The notes under the pieces were generated by a model. The model did no database searches. It had not been told where the DNA came from and was given only the letters and a program-made list of their open reading frames with translations. This document shows, piece after piece, positions 8,011-23,848 of a stretch of DNA of 64,000 bases. Location of the stretch: NCBI GenBank assembly GCA_002441285.1, contig DJVR01000045.1:1144-65143 (forward strand), written 5' to 3'. Origin of the DNA: Candidatus Atribacteria bacterium UBA6251. GTDB taxonomy: Bacteria; Atribacterota; Phoenicimicrobiia; Phoenicimicrobiales; Phoenicimicrobiaceae. Both the position numbers and the translations under genes were made by a program. Position 1 is the stretch's first letter, and each line of letters begins with the position of its first letter.

Positions 8011-8049
8011 AATATATCTCCGGTGATGTTTAAAGAAAACGGGATGTTC

Positions 8050-8991
8050 CTATTTATTTAGGGAACTGTTGTCCTTTGTCACATTCTTAGCCGAAGCAAT
8101 ATTTCTAATCTCAATTTCATCTAAACAATTTTCTAGTAATATATCAAGTGAATGAAATCCTAAGAACCATAGCCCTGCCGCAAATTTTAATGGATCTATG
8201 TCAGTATCCTTACACTTCTCGATAAGATATTGCTTAATTTCTTCGATACCCTTATCATTGCAACCTAATTTATGAGCTATTTTACTTACCCAAGTATCCA
8301 CCGGGAATGCCCACTCGTAATCTTTATTTACTATTCCCGAGTTTATTAATCCAACATCCCTAATGGTGAAAGTCGCAATTTTATCTGAAATGGCTCTCAT
8401 TTTCGTTAGTTCTTCATATGCAGTTTTCACCCCAGAATTGACTATTGTATTTCTTATGAAATTGTAAATATTTTTATTATCATCTGAAACAAACTTCAAA
8501 ACATCTAAAACCATCATTACGTCCTCATCATTACCTAAGAAAATCTTCTTATTGTAAGTTTCATTGCCCCATTTTACTTCAATTTTTTCTGGAGTAATTA
8601 AGAGTTTTATAATTGGATTTTCTTCTGCTATCTCGTTCCTGAAATCTCTATGCTTAATGCTGTTTCCTCTGCCAATTTTTTTCTCTCTTTTGAATTTCAA
8701 AATACACTTTTTGTTAAAATACTTCTTCTGTTCTTTGATTTTCTCATAATCTCTATCCAAACTTTGGTTAGAGATAGAAAAATAATCTTCTAAGGTTTTA
8801 ATAGTAAAATAATAGTATTCGCTAGATAATTTATCTCGCCTTCCCCTCATAAACGAATGACTAAAAAAGAATTTTAGTGCTTCCCACCAGTTTTCCCGTA
8901 AGTTTTCTTTGTTCCAAAAATCAAGATATTTTCTACAATATCCTTCACCAAGCCATTCAATATTCCTTATGGTTTTATTGTAATTTTTCAT
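8050..8991 (-). CDS. HhH-GPD superfamily (Ogg2/AGOG-like) DNA glycosylase-like protein with novel N-terminal region
   Basis: 313 aa. The C-terminal half shows an HhH-like MRAISDKIATFTIRDVGL, an Asp loop FPVDTWVSKIAHKLG and AAGLWFLGFH, which resemble archaeal Ogg2-type N-glycosylase/DNA lyases. The N-terminal ~190 aa are unrecognised. Confidence 0.45.
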   Translation of the reverse strand: MKNYNKTIRNIEWLGEGYCRKYLDFWNKENLRENWWEALKFFFSHSFMRGRRDKLSSEYYYFTIKTLEDYFSISNQSLDRDYEKIKEQKKYFNKKCILKFKREKKIGRGNSIKHRDFRNEIAEENPIIKLLITPEKIEVKWGNETYNKKIFLGNDEDVMMVLDVLKFVSDDNKNIYNFIRNTIVNSGVKTAYEELTKMRAISDKIATFTIRDVGLINSGIVNKDYEWAFPVDTWVSKIAHKLGCNDKGIEEIKQYLIEKCKDTDIDPLKFAAGLWFLGFHSLDILLENCLDEIEIRNIASAKNVTKDNSSLNK

Positions 8992-9239: not shown

Positions 9240-10147
9240 TTAGTCACAATTAAGACTTTCCCAGTCAATATCTTTACGAGGTAAATTGTTATTTAGTGGT
9301 GGAACTTCTCCATGCATTTTAAAATAGCACTTTAATAATCGTTCCTCCTCCTTCTTAATTTCACTTTCATTCCGCAACTTCTTAAAGGAATATTGGATTT
9401 TACAATCATTGTACCTTCCCATAAAGTTAAAGTTGGCATATTTCTTTTCGTGTATAAGCCACACAAAACTGACGGTCCTCTTTAATTTTGCTCTCTGGAA
9501 ATGACGAACCCTGTGCCTTGGCAAGCTTCATCCACTCCCTGAGGATACCCCAGTAGATAGACTGCTCGCGATGAACCAGTAACTTATTAACCCGTCCAAA
9601 GATGTTTCTAAATTCCCAGTAAACGATGAAATCCCAGGGAGTATTCTTGAATCGAACCAACTCGCTCATGTCATGCAGTGAAATCACATGGATGGGTACC
9701 TGTGCTGAGCTGAACAGTGATGGCTCGAGTTCTCTCGGATCATAGGGTTCAGAATCATGCTTGATGACTATTATGCCATGGTAATACTTTACACCCAACG
9801 AGGACCACGATACTTTTCCTCGCCAAGAATTTCTAATATTAGGGACCGAGCCGCTAACAAGTGACTGATAGTTTCTCATTATCTGATAAGTGCCTTCCCT
9901 CAATTTTGCACTGATCCAGTCTTTGCTGGTAGGTTCAACTTTGTTACGAGTTTTAGCTTCGAATATTAGACATACATCCCCGAATATGAATAGCACATCG
10001 CCCAATTCCTGACCCTTGTACCCAGGGTTTGAGGAAGGTCCAAAAACCAAGCAAGTGGGGAGCTAACAGGTAGTAAAGAACATTATCTGTTCGTTCGCCG
10101 ACAGGCATTCTTAGGAGCCTTGCCTTCACCGAATCATCTAGAAACAT
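9240..10147 (-). pseudogene. frameshifted nuclease-like gene (PD-(D/E)xK/NERD-like core)
   Basis: Three overlapping ORF pieces (9953-10147, 9427-10050, 9240-9524) lie in different frames on the same strand. The middle piece carries GDVCLIFEAKT (D...ExK). The segment is visibly more GC-rich than its surroundings. Confidence 0.6.
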
Positions 10148-10351: not shown

Positions 10352-10535
10352 GGATGTTCCATCTTATAGAAAATAGGAACATCCTATTTTTTTATGGTTT
10401 AGCTTTCCATTTTACGAGGTCTTCCTTTAGGACGTCTATCTATATTAAAACCTAAAGCCTCAACCATCCGATTAAGAAACTCCTCAAACCTTATAGTTTT
10501 TCCATTAAAAGCTACAGAATTATTGAACTAACATA
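10352..10535. repeat. direct repeat copy 2 (alternative hairpins plus remnant ORF tail)
   Basis: GGATGTTCC...GGAACATCC and AAAATAGGA...TCCTATTTT hairpins. On the minus strand a remnant tail reads ...FNGKTIRFEEFLNRMVEALGFNIDRRPKGRPRKMES*. It is homologous to 9027-9150. Confidence 0.6.
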
Positions 10536-10655: not shown

Positions 10656-10889
10656 TTAATGTTCCTTATCTTTTGATGGACAAGGATCATTACCATAGCT
10701 ATCTTTGCTTCTTATTTTACCTTCGCGATTTTGTATATATAATTCAGATTTTTGATTTTCAGCAATTCTTTTAGCAATATCTATTGCTTCTTTTTGAGTT
10801 TTTGTAACTTTTGTTGCTCTTTTATTCCCTTCTCCTTTAATAGCCCAACCTTTAGGATGTACGGTTACCCATTGATTTTTCTTTGTCAT
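10656..10889 (-). CDS. DUF2188-family small protein
   Basis: 77 aa (WVTVHPKGWAIKGEGNKRATKVTKTQKEAIDIAKRIA...YGNDPCP) that matches my recollection of the DUF2188 pattern. Confidence 0.6.
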   Translation of the reverse strand: MTKKNQWVTVHPKGWAIKGEGNKRATKVTKTQKEAIDIAKRIAENQKSELYIQNREGKIRSKDSYGNDPCPSKDKEH

Positions 10890-10919
10890 TTTTTATTAAC
10901 TCCTATTAAAATAATTTAT

Positions 10920-11432
10920 TCAAGGAAAAACCTTAATTTCCTTTTTACTATATTTTTCAAGAAATTCAGAAGGTGTAAATATTTCTTTTCTTATTCCACA
11001 TTCTTCTCTTATTCGCTTTAACTGAGCTCTAAATTGGCGTAGATATTTATAATCAGTAGTTAAGTAATAATTCGAATAAATTGTTGAAACAATAAAATTT
11101 TTTGAATCAATCCCGTCTTTATCTTGCATTATTTTTATTAGACAATCTATTTGTTTGTCTAATATTTCATTATGTTTTTTAGTTACTACAACTGGCCATA
11201 ATCTCCATGCAGATCCCATCTTTTTTCTTACTGCTTCTCTTTTGATATTACCTGAACCCGATTCTTCAATCATAGTAGTAGAAATTGGAATACCAATCTC
11301 AAAAATACCTTTATGATCTAATTCAATTATCTGAAGAAATGCATTATTATCTTCCATTTTATTATCTGGTAAATTTGAATCAACTAAATCGCCTAGTACA
11401 AAGTTGTCTACTGTAATAGGAATCTTATCCAA
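10920..11432 (-). CDS. hypothetical protein (170 aa)
   Basis: ORF co-directional with res/mod, 30 bp upstream of the DUF2188 gene. No family was recognised. Confidence 0.5.
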   Translation of the reverse strand: MDKIPITVDNFVLGDLVDSNLPDNKMEDNNAFLQIIELDHKGIFEIGIPISTTMIEESGSGNIKREAVRKKMGSAWRLWPVVVTKKHNEILDKQIDCLIKIMQDKDGIDSKNFIVSTIYSNYYLTTDYKYLRQFRAQLKRIREECGIRKEIFTPSEFLEKYSKKEIKVFP

Positions 11433-11508
11433 TTTTTATATCCCATTATTATCTTTATTTCAAAACCTTTAAAATTAATATGATTATTGCCTAATAGAAG
11501 ATCTGTGT

Positions 11509-12312
11509 TCAGCTACTATATCTATCTTCTCTTTTCTTTAATTCCTTTTCAACTTCTTCTTTAATGGCAACTTCGGTTAAAAGTTTATATTTTGAATCTT
11601 TTGGTCTTCGAAAGGGAACCTTGGTATCAAATATATCTCCAAATAATGAATTCATTAACACAATCCGATAATCAAATAAATAGCATTGAATAGTAAAAAG
11701 ATTATCACTTATTTCATCGCATTTCTTAGTAAACTCAGAATTGCCTTTTTTGGTTAATAAATCTTTAATTGTTTTCTGAAAAAAGTATTTTTGAAAATCA
11801 ATAATTAATTCTTTAACATCTTCGGTTTTAAACTGAATATACTTTTTTAAGTGGTCAAATTGAATTACCCCGATTTCATTTGATTCAATAATCAAGCTAA
11901 GATTTGATATGCCTTTTAAAATGTTTACAACTTGTTGATTTATTTGAAAATCAATTTCAACTTTATTGAATTTTTGTATTTCTGAATATTTTTCATGCAA
12001 TAATAATTTACTCTTTAAATCAATATAATAAACCGAAATATTACCTATTAAATGTGAAAAGTTATAAATCTCTTTATTTATTTCTCTAAATGCATCTATT
12101 TCTAAAGATTTTTTAAACTCTTCTTTCTTAGCAATTTGATTATCTCTTCTGTTTTTTTGTAAATAATTTATTGCTATTAGTAATGCGATTAACCATCCAA
12201 CGATATTACTAAAATTAGTAAATTTTCCATGATAAAAATATTCTATTATCCCATAAGTTAATATAATCAATAAGGATATGAATATAAAAATATTATCCCA
12301 AAATACTTTCAT
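11509..12312 (-). CDS. hypothetical membrane-anchored protein (two N-terminal TM helices)
   Basis: 267 aa with hydrophobic segments IFIFISLLIILTYGII and IVGWLIALLIAINYL, followed by a helical soluble region. It starts 31 bp after the res stop. Confidence 0.55.
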   Translation of the reverse strand: MKVFWDNIFIFISLLIILTYGIIEYFYHGKFTNFSNIVGWLIALLIAINYLQKNRRDNQIAKKEEFKKSLEIDAFREINKEIYNFSHLIGNISVYYIDLKSKLLLHEKYSEIQKFNKVEIDFQINQQVVNILKGISNLSLIIESNEIGVIQFDHLKKYIQFKTEDVKELIIDFQKYFFQKTIKDLLTKKGNSEFTKKCDEISDNLFTIQCYLFDYRIVLMNSLFGDIFDTKVPFRRPKDSKYKLLTEVAIKEEVEKELKKREDRYSS

Positions 12313-12343
12313 AAGCCCATCTTTCTTTAATAGCTACTTCTTT

Positions 12344-15172
12344 TTACTTAACCCAAATTACTCCTTTTTGTAAATTGCTGAACCATAGATCGTAGTCCAT
12401 TGGTCTTAATAGTTCAAATGTGTAAAGGGTAGAGATGTCATCTTGAAATTCTTCGGAGAAATCGATAGGATTTGCTGATCTTAGTTTTTCATTCAATCTT
12501 TTAAAATGGTCTTTCCCCCATTTTTCTTTCGCGCGGGTAATTTCTTCCTGGTCTTCATCAGATTTAATTTCTACTGCCCGGATGATATTATTTATGCCTT
12601 TATCTTGTAATTGACGCAGGTCAGTTAAATTTATTTCCGGATTATCAGAAATTAATCTATCTATATAGCTTTCTAAATTTATTTTAACAAAGAAATCGGG
12701 ATTAAAACTCCTGCGGGTACGGTCTTTCCCTCCTTTAAAAAATTCATAATCAATGCTGTAAAATCCCATATCTCGAGATTTAATCCAGGAGGTTATATAT
12801 TTAGCATTTTCAATCAAATTGAAAACAAAAAATCTTTCTGGCTCATGAGAAACAATCACTAAATTTTGAGGAGTTTTAAATACGGAAGTGTTAACCACAT
12901 AAAGTAGTTTATCTTTTATTAGCCGGTGGAAATAGTCTGATTTTTCTTGGGGTATAAAGTCATATAGACTTAATTGATTGCTGGGCTTTTCTTTGAATCT
13001 TTTTACTAAATAATCAATAACAAACTTATTTTCTTCCTCTAATTCTCCCTGATAATCTTCGGAGATAAACACACTTGTATATTTTTCCAGCTCTCCGGAA
13101 CGGACACTTGAAGCCTCCATATCTTCAGTCCTAATCTCTTTAAAATTACCATCTATATTTATTCTTTTTGCCTTCTTAGTACCCTGAGGAAGAAATTGAT
13201 TGAAAAATAGATCTATTTGTTTGTGGTTATTTTTTGATAATTTATCCTCTCGAAACCCAGCATTTTTCATAGCAATTTTAATTATTTTTTCTATATCATC
13301 AATATCAGGTAATCTGTCTATAATCATTCCCTCTCCAAAATCAAAATGCTTGTTTTCAAATTGGCGATATTTGAATCTATCTGCTATTTCTGAAGCCACT
13401 TCATCAATTGAATAAAATTCCTTGGTTAGATTAAATCTTTTTTGGTCTAATAGATAATCCACTTTGAGATTTAATTTTTCCGAAGGGCAGGTTAAAATTA
13501 AGGTTCTATCCCTAAGGTCTTGCTTTAAAGCAGGAGCTCCCTCTATTTTCTCACCTGGTAGATATTCTAAATTAAAGAGATTAAAATTATATTTTGCCCG
13601 AGGACTATTTTTAAAAACATGAGATACAAAACGGGTTTCACAATCAGTAACTGCAAAAAGTAACTCTTTAATATGTTCGGCAAATTTCTCATGGTTAGTT
13701 ACGGTAACTACCGGATATCTTGCTTGAATTAGACTGTTTGGTACTTTTCGAGGTAATCTTAACCCTCTCCCTAAAACTTGTGAAATTAAAAGTTTTGATT
13801 TAAATACTCTTTCCTCCATGGGAACAATCTGATAAACATTATCTACATCCCAACCTTCTGATAATTTATTTACTGCAAAGATAAATTCTACTTTGCCTCC
13901 CGGCTTTTCAGGATTGAGCTCTTCTATCTGTTCCAATTTTTCCTGATAATCATCATCAGTAGGTTTGCTGATTACGCAAATTACTTTTTCTCTAGCCAAC
14001 GAATATAATTGGGAAATCGATAAATCTTGATATTCTGGCCGGGTATTCTTTAAATATTCACACAAAGCTTTAATAAATTCCTCAGTATTTTTCTGGGCAC
14101 TTGCCTGAGTAGGATTAATGAAGATAGTAATTGGTTTTAAACGAGAGTTCCCATTTAACTTATAAGAATAATTTTCTTTGTTTTTATCGTGGGTAATTAA
14201 TATTTGTTCAAACTTTTGAAATTGGGAGACAGTTTCCTTTTCTCCCTCAATTTTGGTATGGATAATGGAATTTATTATTTTAATATATTTCTCTTCTATT
14301 GCATCTTTAATAGAATAATTACAAATTACGTCAGCAAAATATTCATCCTGATTATAGGGAGTACCAGTAAACCCAATATGTCTTTTTATTTTTGGTTCCT
14401 CTCTCAAAAATTTCATCCATAGGCGCTCATCTCTATTTTCTCCTCTTCCCCCTTCTTCTATAACATAAGCATTGCCACTAAAGGATAGATGGGAGTAGGC
14501 ATGATGTACTTCATCACTTAAAACTAAGATTTCATCGGTCTGGGAAAATAAGGTATCTCCAATTGAATTTCTATCTTTATTAAAAACTGCGTTAATATTC
14601 TCAATAACAATTGAATTATCTACAATAGGATGATTCTCATCTAAAAGACTAATCGGGATATTACAATATTTTGGGGGAAGTTTTTGTTTTAATTTCTGAG
14701 CAGTCTGTCCATAAAGATATTCTCGAAATTTTCCTCTCAATCCCCTTTCAATTACCGTAGAAGAAGGACCCAAAACCAATACTCTTTTTACTTTTCCTAA
14801 AATAATCGATAGATAGGCTAAAGCAAACATTACATAGGATTTTCCAGTACCAGTAGCTAGATGCACCACTCCAGATAATCTATCTGGCAAAGGTAAATGC
14901 CTTATAAAATTCTCTTCACTCTGAAATCTTTGTTGAATCGCTCTTTTTTTTGCAAAATTTTCTCGAGCTAACTCGGAAATATCCTTATAACTTCCTCCCC
15001 AAAGATAAATCATCAACTCTTTGATTGCTTTAAACTGATAATCCCGGCTGCCCACTAATTCTCTAACAAAATCTTCTACTTCAGAAAAATCAAACTTATC
15101 ATAATTACATTTACGAACATCAATATCCAAAGTATGATTTGATAAATAAATTTTTTTAACTTTTTTCGGCAT
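12344..15172 (-). CDS. res: type III restriction enzyme Res subunit (SF2 helicase plus C-terminal PD-ExK endonuclease)
   Basis: 942 aa with Walker A LATGTGKSYVM and the DEAH-type box LSDEVHHA. The C-terminal nuclease pattern is NPDFFVKI...AVEIKSDED. It lies 20 bp downstream of mod. Confidence 0.85.
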   Translation of the reverse strand: MPKKVKKIYLSNHTLDIDVRKCNYDKFDFSEVEDFVRELVGSRDYQFKAIKELMIYLWGGSYKDISELARENFAKKRAIQQRFQSEENFIRHLPLPDRLSGVVHLATGTGKSYVMFALAYLSIILGKVKRVLVLGPSSTVIERGLRGKFREYLYGQTAQKLKQKLPPKYCNIPISLLDENHPIVDNSIVIENINAVFNKDRNSIGDTLFSQTDEILVLSDEVHHAYSHLSFSGNAYVIEEGGRGENRDERLWMKFLREEPKIKRHIGFTGTPYNQDEYFADVICNYSIKDAIEEKYIKIINSIIHTKIEGEKETVSQFQKFEQILITHDKNKENYSYKLNGNSRLKPITIFINPTQASAQKNTEEFIKALCEYLKNTRPEYQDLSISQLYSLAREKVICVISKPTDDDYQEKLEQIEELNPEKPGGKVEFIFAVNKLSEGWDVDNVYQIVPMEERVFKSKLLISQVLGRGLRLPRKVPNSLIQARYPVVTVTNHEKFAEHIKELLFAVTDCETRFVSHVFKNSPRAKYNFNLFNLEYLPGEKIEGAPALKQDLRDRTLILTCPSEKLNLKVDYLLDQKRFNLTKEFYSIDEVASEIADRFKYRQFENKHFDFGEGMIIDRLPDIDDIEKIIKIAMKNAGFREDKLSKNNHKQIDLFFNQFLPQGTKKAKRINIDGNFKEIRTEDMEASSVRSGELEKYTSVFISEDYQGELEEENKFVIDYLVKRFKEKPSNQLSLYDFIPQEKSDYFHRLIKDKLLYVVNTSVFKTPQNLVIVSHEPERFFVFNLIENAKYITSWIKSRDMGFYSIDYEFFKGGKDRTRRSFNPDFFVKINLESYIDRLISDNPEINLTDLRQLQDKGINNIIRAVEIKSDEDQEEITRAKEKWGKDHFKRLNEKLRSANPIDFSEEFQDDISTLYTFELLRPMDYDLWFSNLQKGVIWVK

Positions 15173-15192
15173 TTTTTATATCCTGCCTTCTC

Positions 15193-17328
15193 TTAAATTT
15201 TAGTAATTTTACTCTCATTACCATGTTTATCGATGGCAATGAGATAACTATTTTCCTTAAGATTTTCTACCTTGACTATCCCTTCTTTACTTATCTCTTT
15301 TTTATAAATGGCTAAATCCATATTAAATATTTTTCCATTATAATTTCTATCAATTAATAGCATAGATAACCCTTCTAAGCCTTCAAATCTTTTTTTACTT
15401 TTATCTAATATTTCTGTTTTAAATTGCGAAATCCTAAATCCTCCGCTTAGTCTTTCTACTTCAATCTTTATATCTTCGTTAAAATAGAACTCCGTGGAAG
15501 AAATTAATCTATTAATCTCTTCTTGGGAGCTAGGCTGTTCTTCAATCTGGAAATGACGGGATATATCCTCTAATACTTTATAAGGAAATTTTAATAGTTT
15601 GAAATTAACATCTTCATTATTACTGTTCTTTAAAGTAGTATTAGTTATGACTGTACAGGACTCTGGTGTAACTATATAATAATCCCCTTTTAATCTACCT
15701 CCTGTAGCGACAATAATTTCTTTCAGATAATCTTCGTCTATTTTAATATCTCTAAGATAATCATCTTTCCAGACGGGGTAGACTTCTACAGGATTATTAT
15801 CTTTTTCGGCATATATATTAGAAAGTTTATATTTTGAGGAATAATCTTTTTCGTCTCTCGCAATACCAAATAATCCTAATACAAAATTAATATAGGCGTC
15901 TTTATTTTTTCTTAAATTCATAATCCGGGAAAAATCATAAGCACCAGCAGAAATTATGGAAAAAGGCTGGGGCGGTTCCCCGTATTTTTCATTACTTTTT
16001 GCCTCTTGTCCTAATTTCTTAGAAGCAGCAATATTCCAAATTCTTTTCTGCATAGTGTAAATTGCGTGTTTACCAAAATCACACATAATCCAGCGCCGGC
16101 CTAATTTCTCAGCTACAGCAGCAGTAGTTCCGCTTCCAGCAAAAACATCCATAACCAAATCGTCTTCTTCGGAACAAGTACTAATTATTCTTTCAAGCAA
16201 TTCTTCTGAATTTTCTGTTGGATAGCCAGTAATTCTTGAATAACCTTTTATATCTGTCCAGTCTGTGTTAGACAAAATATAATCGCGGGGTGGTATCCAA
16301 TACTTTACACTATTGTAACTATTCAAATGTTCTTCTTTTTTTACGAATTCCTTAGTTTTACCAGTTCTTTTCCAATAAATATCTAATGGTAAATTCTGTT
16401 GTTTATATTCCCCATAATTTTTAATAGCTGCTTCTGTCCTTTCTTTTTTCCATAACCATTGCCCTTTTTCTGGCTTAATTTCAAATATTTTATACCTCAA
16501 GTTTGGTCTATTGGTTGGTTTCCAAAAAGTATGCCAGTAACTTTTTGCATTATCTCCAGCTTCTTTCATAAAGGCTTTAAACCTTGAACTTGTTTTTTTT
16601 GAATACCAATAAATACTATCTGTAGCAACATTCATAGATTTTTGAGTTTCAAATTGTGTATTCAATGCACCTTGCCTAGTTCTACTAACAATTATTTCGT
16701 TTCTAAAATTATCTCTACCAAATATTTCATCAGCAATTACTTTTATATAATGTCCAAAATGATAATCCATTCTTATAAAAATTGCTCCATTATTACTCAA
16801 TATCTCTCGTAAATAAATCAATCTTTCTCTTAAAGCTTCAATATATTCAGCGCCCATTAATTTCGCACTGTAACTCATTTCTCCATTGCTTCCACCATAC
16901 TCATCACCGGTACCGAATGGTGGGTCTATATAAATCAATTTCACTTTTCCTTTTACTTTATCTCTAATTAAAGGGTCCTGGTTTAAATAGCAGGTCTTTA
17001 AAAATTGCAAATTATCTCCTTGTACTATCATATTGTACCATTCATTATCTTTGGTTTCTCCGAATCTCCTCACTATTTGCAAAGGGGCAGCACCTCCGGT
17101 AAGAGCAGCCTGTGCTAGAATAACTGATTCCGGTCTTTTGCCAGCATACTCAATAGTGGGAATCTTAAATTTATTTAATTTCTGATAATCAAACTGCCCT
17201 TCTCGTTGAAGTTTTTCAAAAAAACCAGGAGATAGTTTAACCAGCAAATTTTCCGGAATTTCTGTTTGATTATTTATACATTCACTCAGTTTCTGCAAAT
17301 CATCTTCACTAAGATTTATCTTTGTCAT
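15193..17328 (-). CDS. mod: type III DNA methyltransferase Mod subunit (beta-class N6A/N4C MTase)
   Basis: 711 aa. Motif IV IYIDPPFGTG lies upstream of motif I VMDVFAGSGTTAAVAEKLGRRWIMCD (beta permutation). The mod-res gene order is typical of type III. Confidence 0.85.
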   Translation of the reverse strand: MTKINLSEDDLQKLSECINNQTEIPENLLVKLSPGFFEKLQREGQFDYQKLNKFKIPTIEYAGKRPESVILAQAALTGGAAPLQIVRRFGETKDNEWYNMIVQGDNLQFLKTCYLNQDPLIRDKVKGKVKLIYIDPPFGTGDEYGGSNGEMSYSAKLMGAEYIEALRERLIYLREILSNNGAIFIRMDYHFGHYIKVIADEIFGRDNFRNEIIVSRTRQGALNTQFETQKSMNVATDSIYWYSKKTSSRFKAFMKEAGDNAKSYWHTFWKPTNRPNLRYKIFEIKPEKGQWLWKKERTEAAIKNYGEYKQQNLPLDIYWKRTGKTKEFVKKEEHLNSYNSVKYWIPPRDYILSNTDWTDIKGYSRITGYPTENSEELLERIISTCSEEDDLVMDVFAGSGTTAAVAEKLGRRWIMCDFGKHAIYTMQKRIWNIAASKKLGQEAKSNEKYGEPPQPFSIISAGAYDFSRIMNLRKNKDAYINFVLGLFGIARDEKDYSSKYKLSNIYAEKDNNPVEVYPVWKDDYLRDIKIDEDYLKEIIVATGGRLKGDYYIVTPESCTVITNTTLKNSNNEDVNFKLLKFPYKVLEDISRHFQIEEQPSSQEEINRLISSTEFYFNEDIKIEVERLSGGFRISQFKTEILDKSKKRFEGLEGLSMLLIDRNYNGKIFNMDLAIYKKEISKEGIVKVENLKENSYLIAIDKHGNESKITKI

Positions 17329-17348
17329 AATATTCCCTCTTTTTTATT

Positions 17349-20300
17349 TTAATTTTCTTTAAAACTTAATTTTTTAACTAATAAATTATTTAAAATATCC
17401 AATTTTGTTTGATTTTTTTCTTGAGGAAGTAGAATGAACTTATTAATCCTTAAAAAACTATATCCGTAGCTTTCCAATTCCAGCTGGCGCTGGATATCGT
17501 ATTCAAGATATTCCTGAGAAAAATTATGTTTAGTAATTATTTCAGGATTTTTAGTATGATATTCTATTCCATCATATTCTAATATAAGAGATTTTTCTTC
17601 TCCGTGATGGGAAAAGATTATTAGAAAATCCACCCGATATTTAGGGATATATTTATTGTATGTTTTTTGTATATATTCCCCGATGGGGAATTGGGCAATT
17701 ATTTTTATTTTGTTCCGATTGGTTTTATAAAAATCAGTCTGAATTAATAAATTATAGAGGTCTTTTTCTGCAGGAGAACCAAATATTGTCTCATCAGTTA
17801 TATAATTATCAATAGCACTTTTTTGAATTTCTTGATAAAATTTTAAGGCATCACCCATGCGTGTATTAGAATACTCTTCCAAAGGCATACTGTGTACTAT
17901 AACCATAGTATCTTTAGCCCGGCTAAATCCTACATTTAATCTTTGCATCTTTAAACTGCGAATAGAATCTGCTCTTCCTTCTATTACCGGATAGATAGTA
18001 CGTAGATCTGCATTACCAATTGTTTTATCTTCTACCAAAGAATAATAAACTATATCTCTTTCTTCTCCCTGCACATCACCTACAAACCAGATTACTAATT
18101 TATGTTTTTTAGATAATCGATGGTAATTAGGTAATTCTTTTCGTAATATTTCCTCCATTCGATATTTTTGTTCTCTAAAGGAAGTAATAATACCAATTGT
18201 ACCTTTAAATCCATTGGCAATTATGTTTTGTATATCTTCTTTTATAGCTATTATTTCATCTAAGTTAACATTATTTCCTGAATTGCCTTTGGTATCCACT
18301 TTAATAAAACGTAAAACTTCATTAATGGGTTTAGTTCGAATGCGGTTAACGATTAAGGGAATCTGGCTGGGTCGATAGAAATATTCATTAGAATATTCAA
18401 TTATCTCCGGGAAACTCCGGAAATGAATATCCAAAGAAGTACTATAATTTTTTAGAGCTTTAGCAAAATTGAGCGTAGATGTCCGAATACTAAAAGTTTT
18501 TAACCATTCTTTAGTACCTTCTTCGGGCTTGTATATTGGCTCAATAAATTGCTCGTCCGGATTTACATCTAATGATGCTTCGGCTGTTATTTTTTCTTTT
18601 TCTTTTTCATCAAAGGCTATCTGATAATCTTTAGCATAATTATCTAAAATTTCTTTAAAATATTGATCTGAATATCTCTTGCTAACATTATATGCCCCCA
18701 CTGCTCCATATTGATATTCGTCACCAAAGACTACCATTTGCTTGGCCCTTAATAATAGAGAGATTGATTCGGCAATAGATACCTGAGAAGCTTCATCTAT
18801 TACTAAAAGGTCAATAGAATCTTCTTCCATTGGAAAGTATTTGGAAATTAAATCTGGTTCGGCAATAATGCAGGAAATATTTTCTAATAGAACTTTTAAT
18901 TCTTTAGGTGTCAATCTTTTGCCTGCTTTCATGCTAACGATAATTCTTTCTTTTTCAGTGGAAAAATTATTGAGATTTTTTATCCGCTGGTCATTAATAT
19001 TTTCTAATTTTTTATGGAGTGTTTGGTAATATTCTTTGATGACTTCTTGGTCAGGGAGATTAAATACTTCTTTTTGATTTAATTCTGTAAATAATTGGAT
19101 ATAATTTAAAACTTTATTGGGAATATCTTTCTCTGAAAATAACTCGTTTAAACTTTGTAAATCATCAAAATATATACCTACTTCTGATAGAATTGATGAA
19201 AAATATTTCTTTAAGATTTGCAGAGAAGAAAGGGTGTCGGAGTTTAAATTATCAATCAAATCTTTTATTTTACTTAACAGATGGAAAAGTTGTTTAATGT
19301 CTTCTTTAGTTAAATTTAATGATTGTAATGCTGGTGTTAACAATTTACGATTCGAAATATAGGTTTTAATATCTTTTAATTTAGAAATTCCAGATTTAAG
19401 TTCTTTTATAGTAATTGTTGATTTTTCTTTAGAGGCTAAATAAAAAATATTAGTTAATATACTATCGTATTCCAATTTTTCTAATAAATTTAAATTATTA
19501 TGGAATTCTTGATTATTTTTTATTTTCATTTTTATGAACATAGAACGGTATTTTAATTTTTCTTTATCTGTAAAAATTAAAGAATCGGGTTTTAAATTTT
19601 CGGCTATCTTAGAAAATAATTCTGAAAATTGGTCGAGATTTTTAAAATCATAATTCTTTAGATTATTTACTTCTGTTTTTTTTAGCGGTAAATTTTTTAT
19701 GTTTTGACAAGCGGTTAACCAATCAACTATTAGGCTTGATTTTTGGTAAAGAAAATTTAATTGATTTAAACTTAAATTACTTAAATCGTTTTCTTTTATT
19801 TTAATGATAAGCTCTCTTATAAGATCAAAATTAATATTTTCGTCTTTTTGTAGCTTATGAGGAGATTGATTTTCTTTAATTATGGATTTTTCTTGTAATT
19901 CTTTTTCTATTTGTTCGAAATTTAATAATTTAGAAATATATTCTTGGTAATTTTCGGAATTAGCCCAAAAATCATTATTCTGTTCTTCAATAATTTGATG
20001 CCAATTAGCAAGGTCCTTTTCAACCGCTTCTTCATTAAATTGATTAACTCTTTTATTTGATGCTGAAATAACCGGGTCAGAGAGTGTATTCTCAAAATTG
20101 TTAATGCTAATATCGTCTCGAGATATTCTTAAGATAGAAGGCTTAGACTCCGGATGCAATGCTCTAAATTTATCAGTCATCATCCGGTCAATTACATCGA
20201 GGGCTGCTTTTTTGTGAGAAGTAACCACAATTGATTTATTTTTCTGATTGGCCCAATAAGTAATCGCAGCTATTGTATAAGATTTTCCTGTTCCGGGGGG

Positions 20301-21665
20301 ACCATCTACTACAATTATATTATTTTGCTCATTTTCCAAAGCAATAAGTATTCTCTTTTGAGGATTATTTAAAGAAAGGGGGATGGTGGATAATAAATTA
20401 TTTACTGATTTCCGAGGGTAATGTTTGTTGAATTCTTCATCTACTTTGTCAGTTGTATTTTTAACATTACCAGAAATATAATTTTTAATAAGGCCGAGAA
20501 ATTTATCACCTTTTCCTGCATCAAGATGGGTAATTAATTCTGAATAATCTAATAATTTGCGGTTTTCTTTCTGTACTACCTGCAGACCGATGCGAAAGCT
20601 TATATTTGGATAATTGGGTAACTGAAATGATTTAAAACAATATACCAATAAAAATTCATCAAATATATTGTAGGTATTCTGTAAATGGTTTTCTATACTT
20701 CCTAAATAATATTTGGCATCTATGAATCTGGCTGCACGAGGAGTAGTTAAAATATTTTCGAACTCAAAAGAATTAATAGCCGGGGTATTAATAATCACTA
20801 TATCGTGTTTACTTCTAATAATTAATTTGTCAGCCAATTCGTCAATTTCAATTTCTATGAGAAAAAGAGGATACTTATCAATTTTTTCTTTTTTTTCTTC
20901 TTTTTCTAAATATATTTCATGAAAAAAGATATAGGCATTTCCTATCCCAACAAAGGGAATATATTTTCTAATAGTGCCATATAGGTCGAATATAGTAAGG
21001 TCAAACGATGCATCTAATATCTGCTTTTTTATTTGGGAAAAATATTTTTCTACATTGTTTTCTTTCTGTGCTATTTTTTGTAAAGAATCAAATATTTCTT
21101 GCTCAATACTTTGAGGATTTAAAGTTGATAAGGGCTTGCTCTTGAATTTTAATTCTGTCTTTAATTTTTCTATCTTTTGTTTTTGCAATTTGTAGAGAAT
21201 TTCTTTGGCGGTATTTCTAAAGGCTAAGTTGAATTTTCGAGAGCCTTCTGAGAAGATCTGTTTTCGAAATTCCTTTTTTTGTTCTATGTTATCAACTACT
21301 TGATTCCCTTCTTCTCCTGATAATATAATTTTGTTTCCATATAATTTTAGTAACCTATCCTCAGATTGTTTAATGCAGCTTTTGAGATATTCTAAATTGT
21401 AATCAGATTCGAGTTTATCAATTAATTTTTGTTTAAACTCGTCTTCGCTTACACTAACTTTGTAATCTCCTCTTTTTATTTCAAAACTAAACTTTTCTCC
21501 TTTTTTAATAGAATCCAATATTTTTTTCTGAAAATCTGGAAAAACAGATAAATCTGAGGTTAAAGAATCATCAGTCCATTTATAGTCTATTTTCTTTTGA
21601 AAATTAAAGCGGGTTTCGGTATAAGTGGCGAAGTAATTTAAAATGCTCTTGGCAAATTTTTTCAT
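17349..21665 (-). CDS. SF1B (Upf1/DNA2-like, AAA_11/AAA_12) helicase fused to a C-terminal DUF559/Vsr-like endonuclease domain
   Basis: 1438 aa with Walker A VVDGPPGTGKSYTIAAI, Walker B LLVIDEASQV, GDEYQ, VQGEERDIVYYS and RLNVGFSRAKD. The C-terminus KYRVDFLIIF...LILEYDGIEYH...SYGYSFLRI is DUF559-like. The N-terminal ~440 aa are unassigned. Confidence 0.8.
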   Translation of the reverse strand: MKKFAKSILNYFATYTETRFNFQKKIDYKWTDDSLTSDLSVFPDFQKKILDSIKKGEKFSFEIKRGDYKVSVSEDEFKQKLIDKLESDYNLEYLKSCIKQSEDRLLKLYGNKIILSGEEGNQVVDNIEQKKEFRKQIFSEGSRKFNLAFRNTAKEILYKLQKQKIEKLKTELKFKSKPLSTLNPQSIEQEIFDSLQKIAQKENNVEKYFSQIKKQILDASFDLTIFDLYGTIRKYIPFVGIGNAYIFFHEIYLEKEEKKEKIDKYPLFLIEIEIDELADKLIIRSKHDIVIINTPAINSFEFENILTTPRAARFIDAKYYLGSIENHLQNTYNIFDEFLLVYCFKSFQLPNYPNISFRIGLQVVQKENRKLLDYSELITHLDAGKGDKFLGLIKNYISGNVKNTTDKVDEEFNKHYPRKSVNNLLSTIPLSLNNPQKRILIALENEQNNIIVVDGPPGTGKSYTIAAITYWANQKNKSIVVTSHKKAALDVIDRMMTDKFRALHPESKPSILRISRDDISINNFENTLSDPVISASNKRVNQFNEEAVEKDLANWHQIIEEQNNDFWANSENYQEYISKLLNFEQIEKELQEKSIIKENQSPHKLQKDENINFDLIRELIIKIKENDLSNLSLNQLNFLYQKSSLIVDWLTACQNIKNLPLKKTEVNNLKNYDFKNLDQFSELFSKIAENLKPDSLIFTDKEKLKYRSMFIKMKIKNNQEFHNNLNLLEKLEYDSILTNIFYLASKEKSTITIKELKSGISKLKDIKTYISNRKLLTPALQSLNLTKEDIKQLFHLLSKIKDLIDNLNSDTLSSLQILKKYFSSILSEVGIYFDDLQSLNELFSEKDIPNKVLNYIQLFTELNQKEVFNLPDQEVIKEYYQTLHKKLENINDQRIKNLNNFSTEKERIIVSMKAGKRLTPKELKVLLENISCIIAEPDLISKYFPMEEDSIDLLVIDEASQVSIAESISLLLRAKQMVVFGDEYQYGAVGAYNVSKRYSDQYFKEILDNYAKDYQIAFDEKEKEKITAEASLDVNPDEQFIEPIYKPEEGTKEWLKTFSIRTSTLNFAKALKNYSTSLDIHFRSFPEIIEYSNEYFYRPSQIPLIVNRIRTKPINEVLRFIKVDTKGNSGNNVNLDEIIAIKEDIQNIIANGFKGTIGIITSFREQKYRMEEILRKELPNYHRLSKKHKLVIWFVGDVQGEERDIVYYSLVEDKTIGNADLRTIYPVIEGRADSIRSLKMQRLNVGFSRAKDTMVIVHSMPLEEYSNTRMGDALKFYQEIQKSAIDNYITDETIFGSPAEKDLYNLLIQTDFYKTNRNKIKIIAQFPIGEYIQKTYNKYIPKYRVDFLIIFSHHGEEKSLILEYDGIEYHTKNPEIITKHNFSQEYLEYDIQRQLELESYGYSFLRINKFILLPQEKNQTKLDILNNLLVKKLSFKEN

Positions 21666-23651: not shown

Positions 23652-23828
23652 ATGGTTAACTCTAAAAAATTAAAAGAAAAAGGCACTGAGAAGATAGTAG
23701 TCCTGAAGACTATAAGATCAATTCGGGAGAAAATAAGAAAAGCTAACAGAGAATCCACCTCTTCACAGAAAAATAATGAACCTAAACCAAACATTATTTT
23801 TGAAAAAGAAAAATTCAAGGTCCACTAA
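23652..23828 (+). CDS. possible small basic protein (58 aa)
   Basis: ATG at 23652 is preceded by GAAGAGG. The product MVNSKKLKEKGTEKIVVLKTIRSIREKIRKAN... is K/R-rich. The upstream part of the 95-aa track ORF is low-complexity sequence overlapping the palindrome array. Confidence 0.3.
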   Translation: MVNSKKLKEKGTEKIVVLKTIRSIREKIRKANRESTSSQKNNEPKPNIIFEKEKFKVH

Positions 23829-23848
23829 GAAATTCAAGGTCCACTAAG
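23811..23848. repeat. perfect 19-bp tandem duplication AAATTCAAGGTCCACTAAG x2
   Basis: 23811-23829 and 23830-23848 are identical. The first copy contains the stop codon of the small ORF. Confidence 0.9.

Follow-up and report, generated by a model that had tools for sequence, protein, structure and literature searches.

A helicase-nuclease gene linked near-invariably to mod-res in a clade of type III restriction-modification loci

Introduction

Restriction-modification (R-M) of type III has for fifty years been treated as a two-protein machine encoded by mod and res. In its classical representatives EcoP1I and EcoP15I (Mod2Res1), mod stands before res, Mod is a beta-class methyltransferase with a variable center, and Res joins a superfamily 2 (SF2) motor to a PD-ExK nuclease. 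Here we describe a locus of Candidatus Atribacteria bacterium UBA6251 that is alike in all of these respects. It lies within a stretch of 64,000 nucleotides (nt) of contig DJVR01000045.1, which we refer to as the window. The locus and its relatives differ from the classical systems in that an extra gene, encoding a 1438-amino-acid (aa) helicase-nuclease that we call Hel, is linked near-invariably to mod-res, in that the operon often takes cargo genes inside, and in that the Res of the window has no detectable sequence match to that of EcoP15I. Three further genes follow res in the window and encode a membrane protein (g267), a PIN-like protein (g170), and a DUF2188 protein.

Several described systems come close to this arrangement. 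Hhe is said to have been reported by Gao et al. in 2020 as a stand-alone anti-phage protein. Like Hel, Hhe (a DUF4011 helicase with Vsr; NF042953) and ProA combine an N-domain, an AAA_11/AAA_12 helicase, and a C-terminal Vsr/DUF559-like nuclease. In class 1 DISARM and in BREX, a methyltransferase marks self DNA and helicase/nuclease-type proteins act on unmarked DNA, but the window locus, unlike both, has kept a type III Res that is complete and brings its own nuclease. Closest in gene order are the type III systems described by Murray et al. 2021 (PMC8259958), which have an extra helicase-like ATPase gene 5' of mod (Eco86II, BspHIV, and EcoF9792I) and occur in hundreds of genomes. In the Eco86II group this extra ATPase is SF2-like and, according to the authors, without a nuclease motif (PMC8259958).

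An initial annotation of the window had read the six genes as one composite system, perhaps an undescribed type III derivative. The novelty holds for the combination, in that we found no description of Hel-Mod-Res in the searchable literature, PADLOC v2, or NCBIfam 2026, and literature searches on ProA, on the composition of MADS, and on Upf1-like proteins with type III systems returned nothing relevant. It does not hold for the principle of a third helicase-like gene 5' of mod, which has been published for a non-homologous SNF2 protein (PMC8259958). We consider it probable, if well short of certain, that the locus consists of a three-gene type III derivative, Hel-Mod-Res, and a separate tail cassette, standing side by side.

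Linkage of Hel with Mod and Res across phyla

Using an alignment of 16 Hel relatives, we collected 80 loci, with one genome per species, and compared the six window proteins with all open reading frames (ORFs) by phmmer. Downstream sequence of at least 3 kb was available for 59 loci, and 54 of these had Mod; with at least 9 kb, Mod was found in 36 and Res in 32 of 39. Among the five loci without Mod, at least two, L031 and L036, carry cargo genes that are seen ahead of Mod elsewhere, and in these two Mod probably lies beyond the fetched flank. Judged by the title lines of the loci, the set spans about 15 phyla. It includes Aerophobetes, Ignavibacteria, Omnitrophota, Thermodesulfobacteriota, Bdellovibrionales, Gammaproteobacteria, and several groups of the candidate phyla radiation, as well as Chloroflexota, Nitrospirota, Verrucomicrobiota, Planctomycetota, Lentisphaerae, Cloacimonadota, Elusimicrobia, and Atribacterota.

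The reverse test, which started from Res, covered 80 metagenome loci reached at 48-94% Res identity. Where the sequence upstream of Mod reached at least 5 kb, Hel was present in 31 of 32 loci, and where it reached at least 3 kb, in 36 of 39. In one of the exceptions, L150, cargo genes of known kinds stand upstream of Mod, and its Hel may lie past the contig end. Throughout, Hel, Mod, and Res keep a constant order and strand, their start and stop codons frequently overlap, and mod precedes res in every locus that has both genes (in the window, with a gap of 20 nt). Plain Mod-Res pairs, with Res at 31% identity, are found without Hel, and Hel therefore marks a specific clade.

We also compared the evolution of the three proteins in 36 loci in which all three genes are intact. 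The pairwise-identity matrices of Hel and Res are highly correlated (r = 0.97), those of Hel and Mod and of Mod and Res somewhat less so (0.88 each), and none of 2000 permutations in a Mantel test reached these correlations. These comparisons support the view that, in many phyla, Hel is a near-obligate partner of this Mod-Res clade and apparently co-evolves with it. The statement in the initial annotation that the system is more than a plain two-gene type III pair is borne out by this third gene, linked across about 15 phyla. Its broader suggestion, a composite reaching beyond plain R-M, stands for Hel, which is near-obligate with Mod-Res (54/59 and 31/32), but not for g267, g170, and the DUF2188 gene, which are not conserved (0/87).

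Relatives of Hel were absent from 2.9 million viral contigs, so that no phage carriage was seen, and a blastn search with a gammaproteobacterial Hel gene at the 'distant' setting gave no match in E. coli genomes. We considered a small helix-turn-helix (HTH) regulator ahead of Hel, comparable to mads1 in E. coli, as a further core part and rejected it, as it occurs in only about 5 of 90 loci, plus L090 and L091. In the latter two loci a 56-aa HTH_17 gene stands ahead of Hel-Mod-Res and the genes are flanked by a serine recombinase and DUF2924, which suggests that this variant is carried on an integrative element.

Domain architecture of Mod, Res, and Hel

Mod matches the Pfam family N6_N4_Mtase (1.6e-36) and the MTase_III models of PADLOC, and its best PDB sequence matches are all type III Mods (6k0w, EcoP15I 4zcf, and Mbo45V 7dsu). 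The protein has the beta-class N6/N4 order, with motif IV (DPPF, residues 135-138) before motif I (FAGSGTT, residues 396-402), and both DPPF and FxGSG are invariant in 36/36 loci. The center of Mod, residues ~200-360, is hypervariable (13-33% identity, compared with 50-80% for the flanks), and we regard it as the putative target-recognition domain. Res has an N-terminal SF2 helicase-like ATPase (ATGTGKS, DEVHH; Pfam ResIII and SWI2_SNF2) and a C-terminal PD-(D/E)xK nuclease (P825-D826 ... E868-I-K870), and its motifs TGxGKS, DExHH, PD826, and E868-x-K870 are likewise invariant in all 36 loci. Its match to PADLOC REase_III is partial in coverage (5e-14), its score against the NCBIfam family BPTD_3080 is far under the cut-off, and a 13-sequence profile found no PDB match at E <= 0.01, EcoP15I Res included. 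The features of Mod and the mod-res order fit the definition of type III, and the motifs of Res are the right ones.

The largest of the three proteins, Hel, has at residues ~431-1265 a Upf1-like helicase core of superfamily 1B (SF1B), which is matched by Pfam AAA_11, AAA_12, and AAA_30. Its nearest PDB sequences are Upf1, DNA2, IGHMBP2, and Sen1, which are SF1B helicases of 5'-3' polarity. The middle of the protein (~560-880) is a variable insert and the least conserved part, at 18-27% identity; a portion of it resembles a designed coiled coil in the PDB sequence search. At residues ~1290-1438 lies a Vsr/DUF559/MTES_1575-like PD-(D/E)xK nuclease domain. The C-terminal 150 aa match MTES_1575 in 16 of 16 family members and DUF559 in 15 of 16, and PDB sequences gave nothing useful for this domain. 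GPPGTGKS, DEASQ, QGEERD, D1346, E1363, D1365, H1370, and K1409 are invariant in 36/36 loci. What the conservation of all three genes shows is a unit that is inherited as one, with its two predicted motor and two predicted nuclease domains intact and a methylase whose putative recognition region diversifies.

Residues 1-430 of Hel form a family-specific N-domain, modeled at a predicted local distance difference test (pLDDT) score of 79, for which Foldseek found no fold match in the PDB (best template-modeling (TM) score 0.15). Among 1.84 billion representative proteins this domain gave 144 hits, many of them fragments, and only at the N-terminus of the Hel family. Full-length relatives of Hel number in the hundreds and measure 1400-1510 aa. 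A more remote resemblance is seen on plasmid p3ABAYE of Acinetobacter baumannii AYE (L085), where a 1576-aa AAA-domain protein is encoded directly after brxL in a BREX-1 operon. This protein is 24% identical, over residues 923-1407, to the C-terminal portion of Hel that holds the helicase and nuclease.

We compared Hel and its neighbors with known defense families and rejected several assignments. Hel scores 62 bits against the NCBIfam model of Hhe, whose cut-off is 2000, and 100 against that of ProA, whose cut-off is 1500. No DUF4011 was found in Hel, with 16 members searched. With scores this far under the cut-off and a different N-domain, Hel is not a mere Hhe fusion. Mokosh was set aside on partial helicase-region matches only to MkoA and MkoC and no PLD domain in Pfam. 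The PADLOC models PDC-S37 and mad8 also gave partial helicase-region matches to Hel, that of mad8 being at the level of the P-loop (2.7e-6). DISARM, BREX, and MADS were excluded in that, apart from this mad8 match and a marginal BrxA hit (0.0055) of the upstream 442-aa protein, the nine locus proteins show no DrmA/DrmB/DrmC, Pgl/Brx, or mad signature in PADLOC.

A cargo slot between Hel and Mod

Of 54 loci, 22 have a Hel-Mod spacing between -37 and +30 nt, and the other loci have an insert of 0.5-8.6 kb. Within these inserts (L004-L083), AlbA_2/HATPase_c_4/HTH proteins are found in 20 loci and DUF1016/YhcG nucleases in 11, while others hold RloB with AAA_21; ORF6N or Fic-cluster genes were seen in one locus each. 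Cargo of the same kind is described within type I R-M operons. The Hel-Mod gap also serves as a recurrent entry point for unrelated genes of defense type. In L090 and L091 the insert is an extra 441-aa methyltransferase.

Comparison with type III systems that have a SNF2-related helper

We next examined the E. coli systems with an extra ATPase, which were reached through a Salmonella plasmid Res hit (L092). The Eco86II strain NCTC86 was absent among the listed hits, and E. coli F9792 served as its proxy; EcoF9792I has the same GAGCC specificity (Murray Table 4). In E. coli F9792 (L183) the order is SNF2-related (frameshifted)-Mod-Res, and taken together the enterobacterial loci (L092, L093, and L183) read HTH (annotated mads1)-SNF2-related-[Abi (abortive infection), AIPR, or insertion sequence]-Mod-Res. 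For instance, in E. coli CFSAN004176 (L093) a mads1 HTH gene, the SNF2 gene, Abi and AIPR genes, Mod, and Res follow one another in an island beside a tRNA-Sec gene.

The Eco86II group thus shares with the Hel loci an extra ATPase gene immediately 5' of mod-res and cargo between the helper and mod (Abi and AIPR in E. coli). The proteins themselves are different. The Eco86II-group helper is SNF2-related whereas Hel is an SF1 protein with a Vsr-like domain, and the two have no similarity (BLASTP best E = 0.83). The Mods are alike at the motif level only, and the Res proteins have no significant similarity. From these sequence comparisons, the likeness between the two kinds of system is best regarded as convergent and not homologous.

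Proposed function and alternative explanations

We propose a division of labor among the three proteins, as a working scheme to which we would give not quite an even chance. Mod would use its variable central domain to methylate a short asymmetric motif of the host. Res would act as an ATP-driven switch that carries a PD-ExK nuclease and, together with Mod, would recognize unmethylated foreign DNA as in classical type III systems, and Mod-Res would in this way supply methylation-based discrimination and a first cut or stall. Hel would be a second motor-nuclease, recruited to or licensed by recognition or cleavage by Mod-Res; it would load at a nick, a break, or unwound DNA, and would then unwind and processively degrade the invader. 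The outcome would be that the one double-strand cut made by a type III enzyme is turned into irreversible destruction, with less escape by repair or methylation. The dependence of Hel on Mod and Res, the order of events, and all of the activities are what we infer.

On a more tentative level, Hel-Mod-Res may represent a distinct class of methylation-guided immunity, in which type III recognition licenses a processive SF1B helicase-nuclease and each system has two motors and two nucleases. If both Hel and the SNF2-related helper, which a different type III clade in enterobacteria has recruited, are functional, the addition of a second motor would be a solution reached repeatedly and convergently to the known weaknesses of type III restriction, namely its single cut and its need for two inverted sites. 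Were this true, further defense cargo would have a general docking site in the helper-mod slot. Hel and the independently acquired SNF2 helper together suggest an unrecognized layer in how restriction systems finish foreign DNA, and Hel-Mod-Res offers a defined three-gene set for testing such a layer, in a clade that is known almost wholly from uncultured anaerobes and bacteria of candidate phyla.

A number of observations weigh against this interpretation. All of the matches to the nuclease domain of Hel are under the curated cut-offs of Pfam, and that to MTES_1575 is weak in the Hel of the window. Co-inheritance alone could yield the correlations between identity matrices. A relative of Hel that is 31% identical stands on a Priestia plasmid with no annotated Mod-Res adjoining, in a record whose annotation is incomplete. 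Hhe, which has a similar architecture, is classed as a stand-alone anti-phage protein by both PADLOC and NCBIfam. Finally, the extra ATPase of E. coli is dispensable for methylation and is missing from the partially purified, DNA-cutting Eco86II preparation (PMC8259958); since the E. coli helper is absent from the cutting enzyme, a helper need not be a subunit.

Several of these points bear on the strongest alternative, that Hel is an autonomous defense gene of the Hhe type which adjoins type III R-M genes through the clustering and co-transfer of defense genes, with no functional coupling. The solitary Priestia relative and the dispensability of the analogous E. coli helper for cutting and methylation are what one would expect of such a gene, as are the weak matches of Hel to the models of Hhe, ProA, MkoA/MkoC, and PDC-S37, and the distant relative appended to the Acinetobacter BREX-1 operon indicates that proteins of this kind associate with different systems. 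We nevertheless regard full autonomy as unlikely. Mere island neighbors are not kept in order and on one strand, with overlapping stop and start codons, over about 15 phyla; the linkage is near-complete in both directions; and Hel and Res co-vary closely (r = 0.97). In addition, the cargo that enters between Hel and Mod leaves the trio intact, and the family-specific N-domain was never seen outside the context of the trio.

A second alternative accepts the partnership and gives Hel a different part in it, that of a controller or guard that either curbs self-restriction (restriction alleviation) or mounts a backup response when a phage anti-restriction factor blocks Mod-Res. Tight genetic coupling fits a partner role of any sort, and the large N-domain and variable middle of Hel could be sensor surfaces. 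However, no positive evidence speaks for a guard, an effector would account at least equally well for the invariant motifs of nuclease and helicase, and no regulator-type domain was detected by Pfam in Hel and its members or by the fold search with the N-domain. We judge this role improbable, more so than autonomy, and retain the licensed effector as our preferred function for Hel.

The genes downstream of Res

The initial annotation had extended the system to the membrane protein and the two small proteins that follow Res. Comparative genomics does not bear out a conserved six-gene order: only the trio is kept, and the tail genes recur solely at a Res identity of at least 68%, with a variable slot. 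An iterated search for g267, g170, and DUF2188 in the 87 other loci found none even at E <= 1. Among Hel-Mod-Res loci, the tail genes are confined to those whose Res shares 68% identity or more with that of the window, and are present in none at 67% or below. The close relatives that have g267 and/or g170-DUF2188 downstream of Hel-Mod-Res are L097, L104-L108, L110, L116, and L137. Across L097, L104-L110, and L116, the stretch from Res to g170 is a variable slot whose contents differ by locus: a 267-aa gene, a 271-aa homologue with DUF3800, a 427-aa and a 697-aa gene, or a 178-aa and a 137-aa gene.

The same genes are found beside other systems. In L094-L096 the triplet (~88% identical) comes after a type I R-M system (HsdM, HsdS, HsdR, and a YgjP-like protein) and is itself followed by an OLD-family ATPase and UvrD helicase pair with a Gabija-like look; its presence there contradicts the assignment of the membrane/small-protein module to the type III system. 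More distant homologues of g267 adjoin plain Mod-Res pairs or GmrSD/NucS/HsdR. Given the triplet after type I R-M and its absence from Hel-Mod-Res loci with Res at 67% identity or less, g267-g170-DUF2188 is, on this synteny, best described as a putative independent mobile cassette, a neighbor of the type III system and not its component. Counting against so clean a separation, the recurrence of the tail genes after Hel-Mod-Res in close relatives makes a lineage-specific functional link conceivable. That all six genes form one composite defense system, in which the R-M core is joined by the helicase-nuclease and the membrane/small-protein module, could be argued from this recurrence, from the short gaps, and from the absence of terminator-like sites between the genes, but it is very improbable and appears largely refuted by synteny, in view of the missing tail genes at lower Res identity, the changing genes between Res and g170, the 88% identical triplet after type I R-M, and the other g267 homologues beside unrelated defense genes. 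The six-gene reading is corrected accordingly to a PIN/DUF2188 cassette that moves between R-M loci.

What the cassette does can be approached from its parts. By direct reading of its sequence, g267 has two hydrophobic segments at the N-terminal end and is helical in the rest. The protein has no match in Pfam, PADLOC, or NCBIfam, and its homologues fall into 99 clusters of a family that occurs in defense islands. No Pfam family, PIN included, matches g170. Its AlphaFold2 (AF2) model (pLDDT 86, predicted TM score (pTM) 0.84) has VapC toxins, PIN-type RNase P, and HARP at the top of a Foldseek search, with probabilities of 0.9-1.0, TM scores of ~0.5, and a best E value of 1.3e-3, which is weak. 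Four acidic residues of g170 (D9, E56, D104, and D127) are invariant and a fifth, E45, is kept in at least 90% of sequences; the 120 clusters listed, of 139, are 72-100% identical. The DUF2188 gene stands ~30 nt after g170 in every context checked (L094-96, L105, L106, L110, and L116), and its product is a probable partner of g170. It matches Pfam DUF2188 at 1.4e-21 and the PADLOC candidate PDC-S16 at 2.5e-35, is found in phages as well (phrog_3220, 3.9e-29), and gave nothing useful against PDB sequences. The DUF2188 family has an earlier link to defense in the literature.

With its predicted PIN-like fold, conserved acidic residues, and a small partner gene 30 nt away, the g170-DUF2188 pair resembles VapC/PIN toxin-antitoxin modules. 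It differs from VapC modules in that the small gene lies downstream and not upstream, DUF2188 is no known antitoxin family, and a membrane protein often stands ahead. The two genes could form a toxin-antitoxin-like module whose small partner lies downstream, and the cassette as a whole is probably a module of toxin-antitoxin-like or abortive-infection type. It probably shares a transcript with the R-M genes in this genome.

Locus anatomy, transcription signals, and composition

The ORF list reproduces the six minus-strand genes and the gaps between them exactly as initially annotated (Table 1), and Pfam agrees with the domain labels given for the SF1 helicase, N6_N4_Mtase, ResIII, and DUF2188. 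From Hel to the DUF2188 gene, the intergenic gaps are 20, 20, 31, 76, and 30 nt.

Table 1. Positions of the six genes and the downstream hairpin in the window
Feature	Position	Strand	Length	Basis or remark
Hel, helicase-nuclease	17349-21665	minus	1438 aa	ORF list
Mod, methyltransferase	15193-17328	minus	711 aa	ORF list
Res, ATPase-nuclease	12344-15172	minus	942 aa	ORF list
g267, membrane protein	11509-12312	minus	267 aa	ORF list
g170, PIN-like	10920-11432	minus	170 aa	TTG start
DUF2188 gene	10656-10889	minus	77 aa	Pfam DUF2188
Stable hairpin 3' of DUF2188 gene	10352-10396	minus		fold energy

A consensus scan of 15 kb found 4 terminator-like sites where 6.8 are expected, and none on the minus strand within 10656-21665, which agrees with the earlier failure to see a terminator between the six genes. 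The sole minus-strand site in the scanned sequence, at 23525-23507, lies upstream of the cluster. Promoter-like matches were at chance level (82 against 77.9 expected) and, in DNA this AT-rich, the scan is uninformative either way. A purine-rich, Shine-Dalgarno-like stretch precedes each of the six genes. From the layout of the genes, one transcript for all six is plausible.

The hairpin beyond the DUF2188 gene had been put forward as the terminator of the operon. The hairpin itself is real (-17.2 kcal/mol, z = -3.3), but it lies ~260 nt past the DUF2188 stop codon and its stem is followed by AUUAGUUGAUAUAACAU, with no U-tract, so that it is not a canonical intrinsic terminator; it may still mark the transcript's 3' end. 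An inverted copy of one hairpin arm (AAATAGGAACATCC, 10371-10393) lies at 8033-8055, where a 313-aa ORF has its 3' end, and the two could be copies of a repeated intergenic element.

GC content is 0.23-0.32 from the upstream 442-aa ORF through the DUF2188 gene, as compared with 0.35-0.375 in two upstream housekeeping genes of the PmbA/TldD family, a drop that fits an acquired island. We found no convincing direct repeats flanking this island and no phase-variable repeats within mod. The 207-aa ORF at 9427-10050, which has no family match, has a GC content of 0.44 and a GC content at third codon positions (GC3) of 0.47, against 0.23-0.32 in its neighbors, and looks compositionally foreign to the island. 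Lastly, a 19-nt unit (AAATTCAAGGTCCACTAAG) is perfectly duplicated in tandem at the intergenic positions 23811-23848, upstream of the 442-aa gene, which is DUF4136-like.

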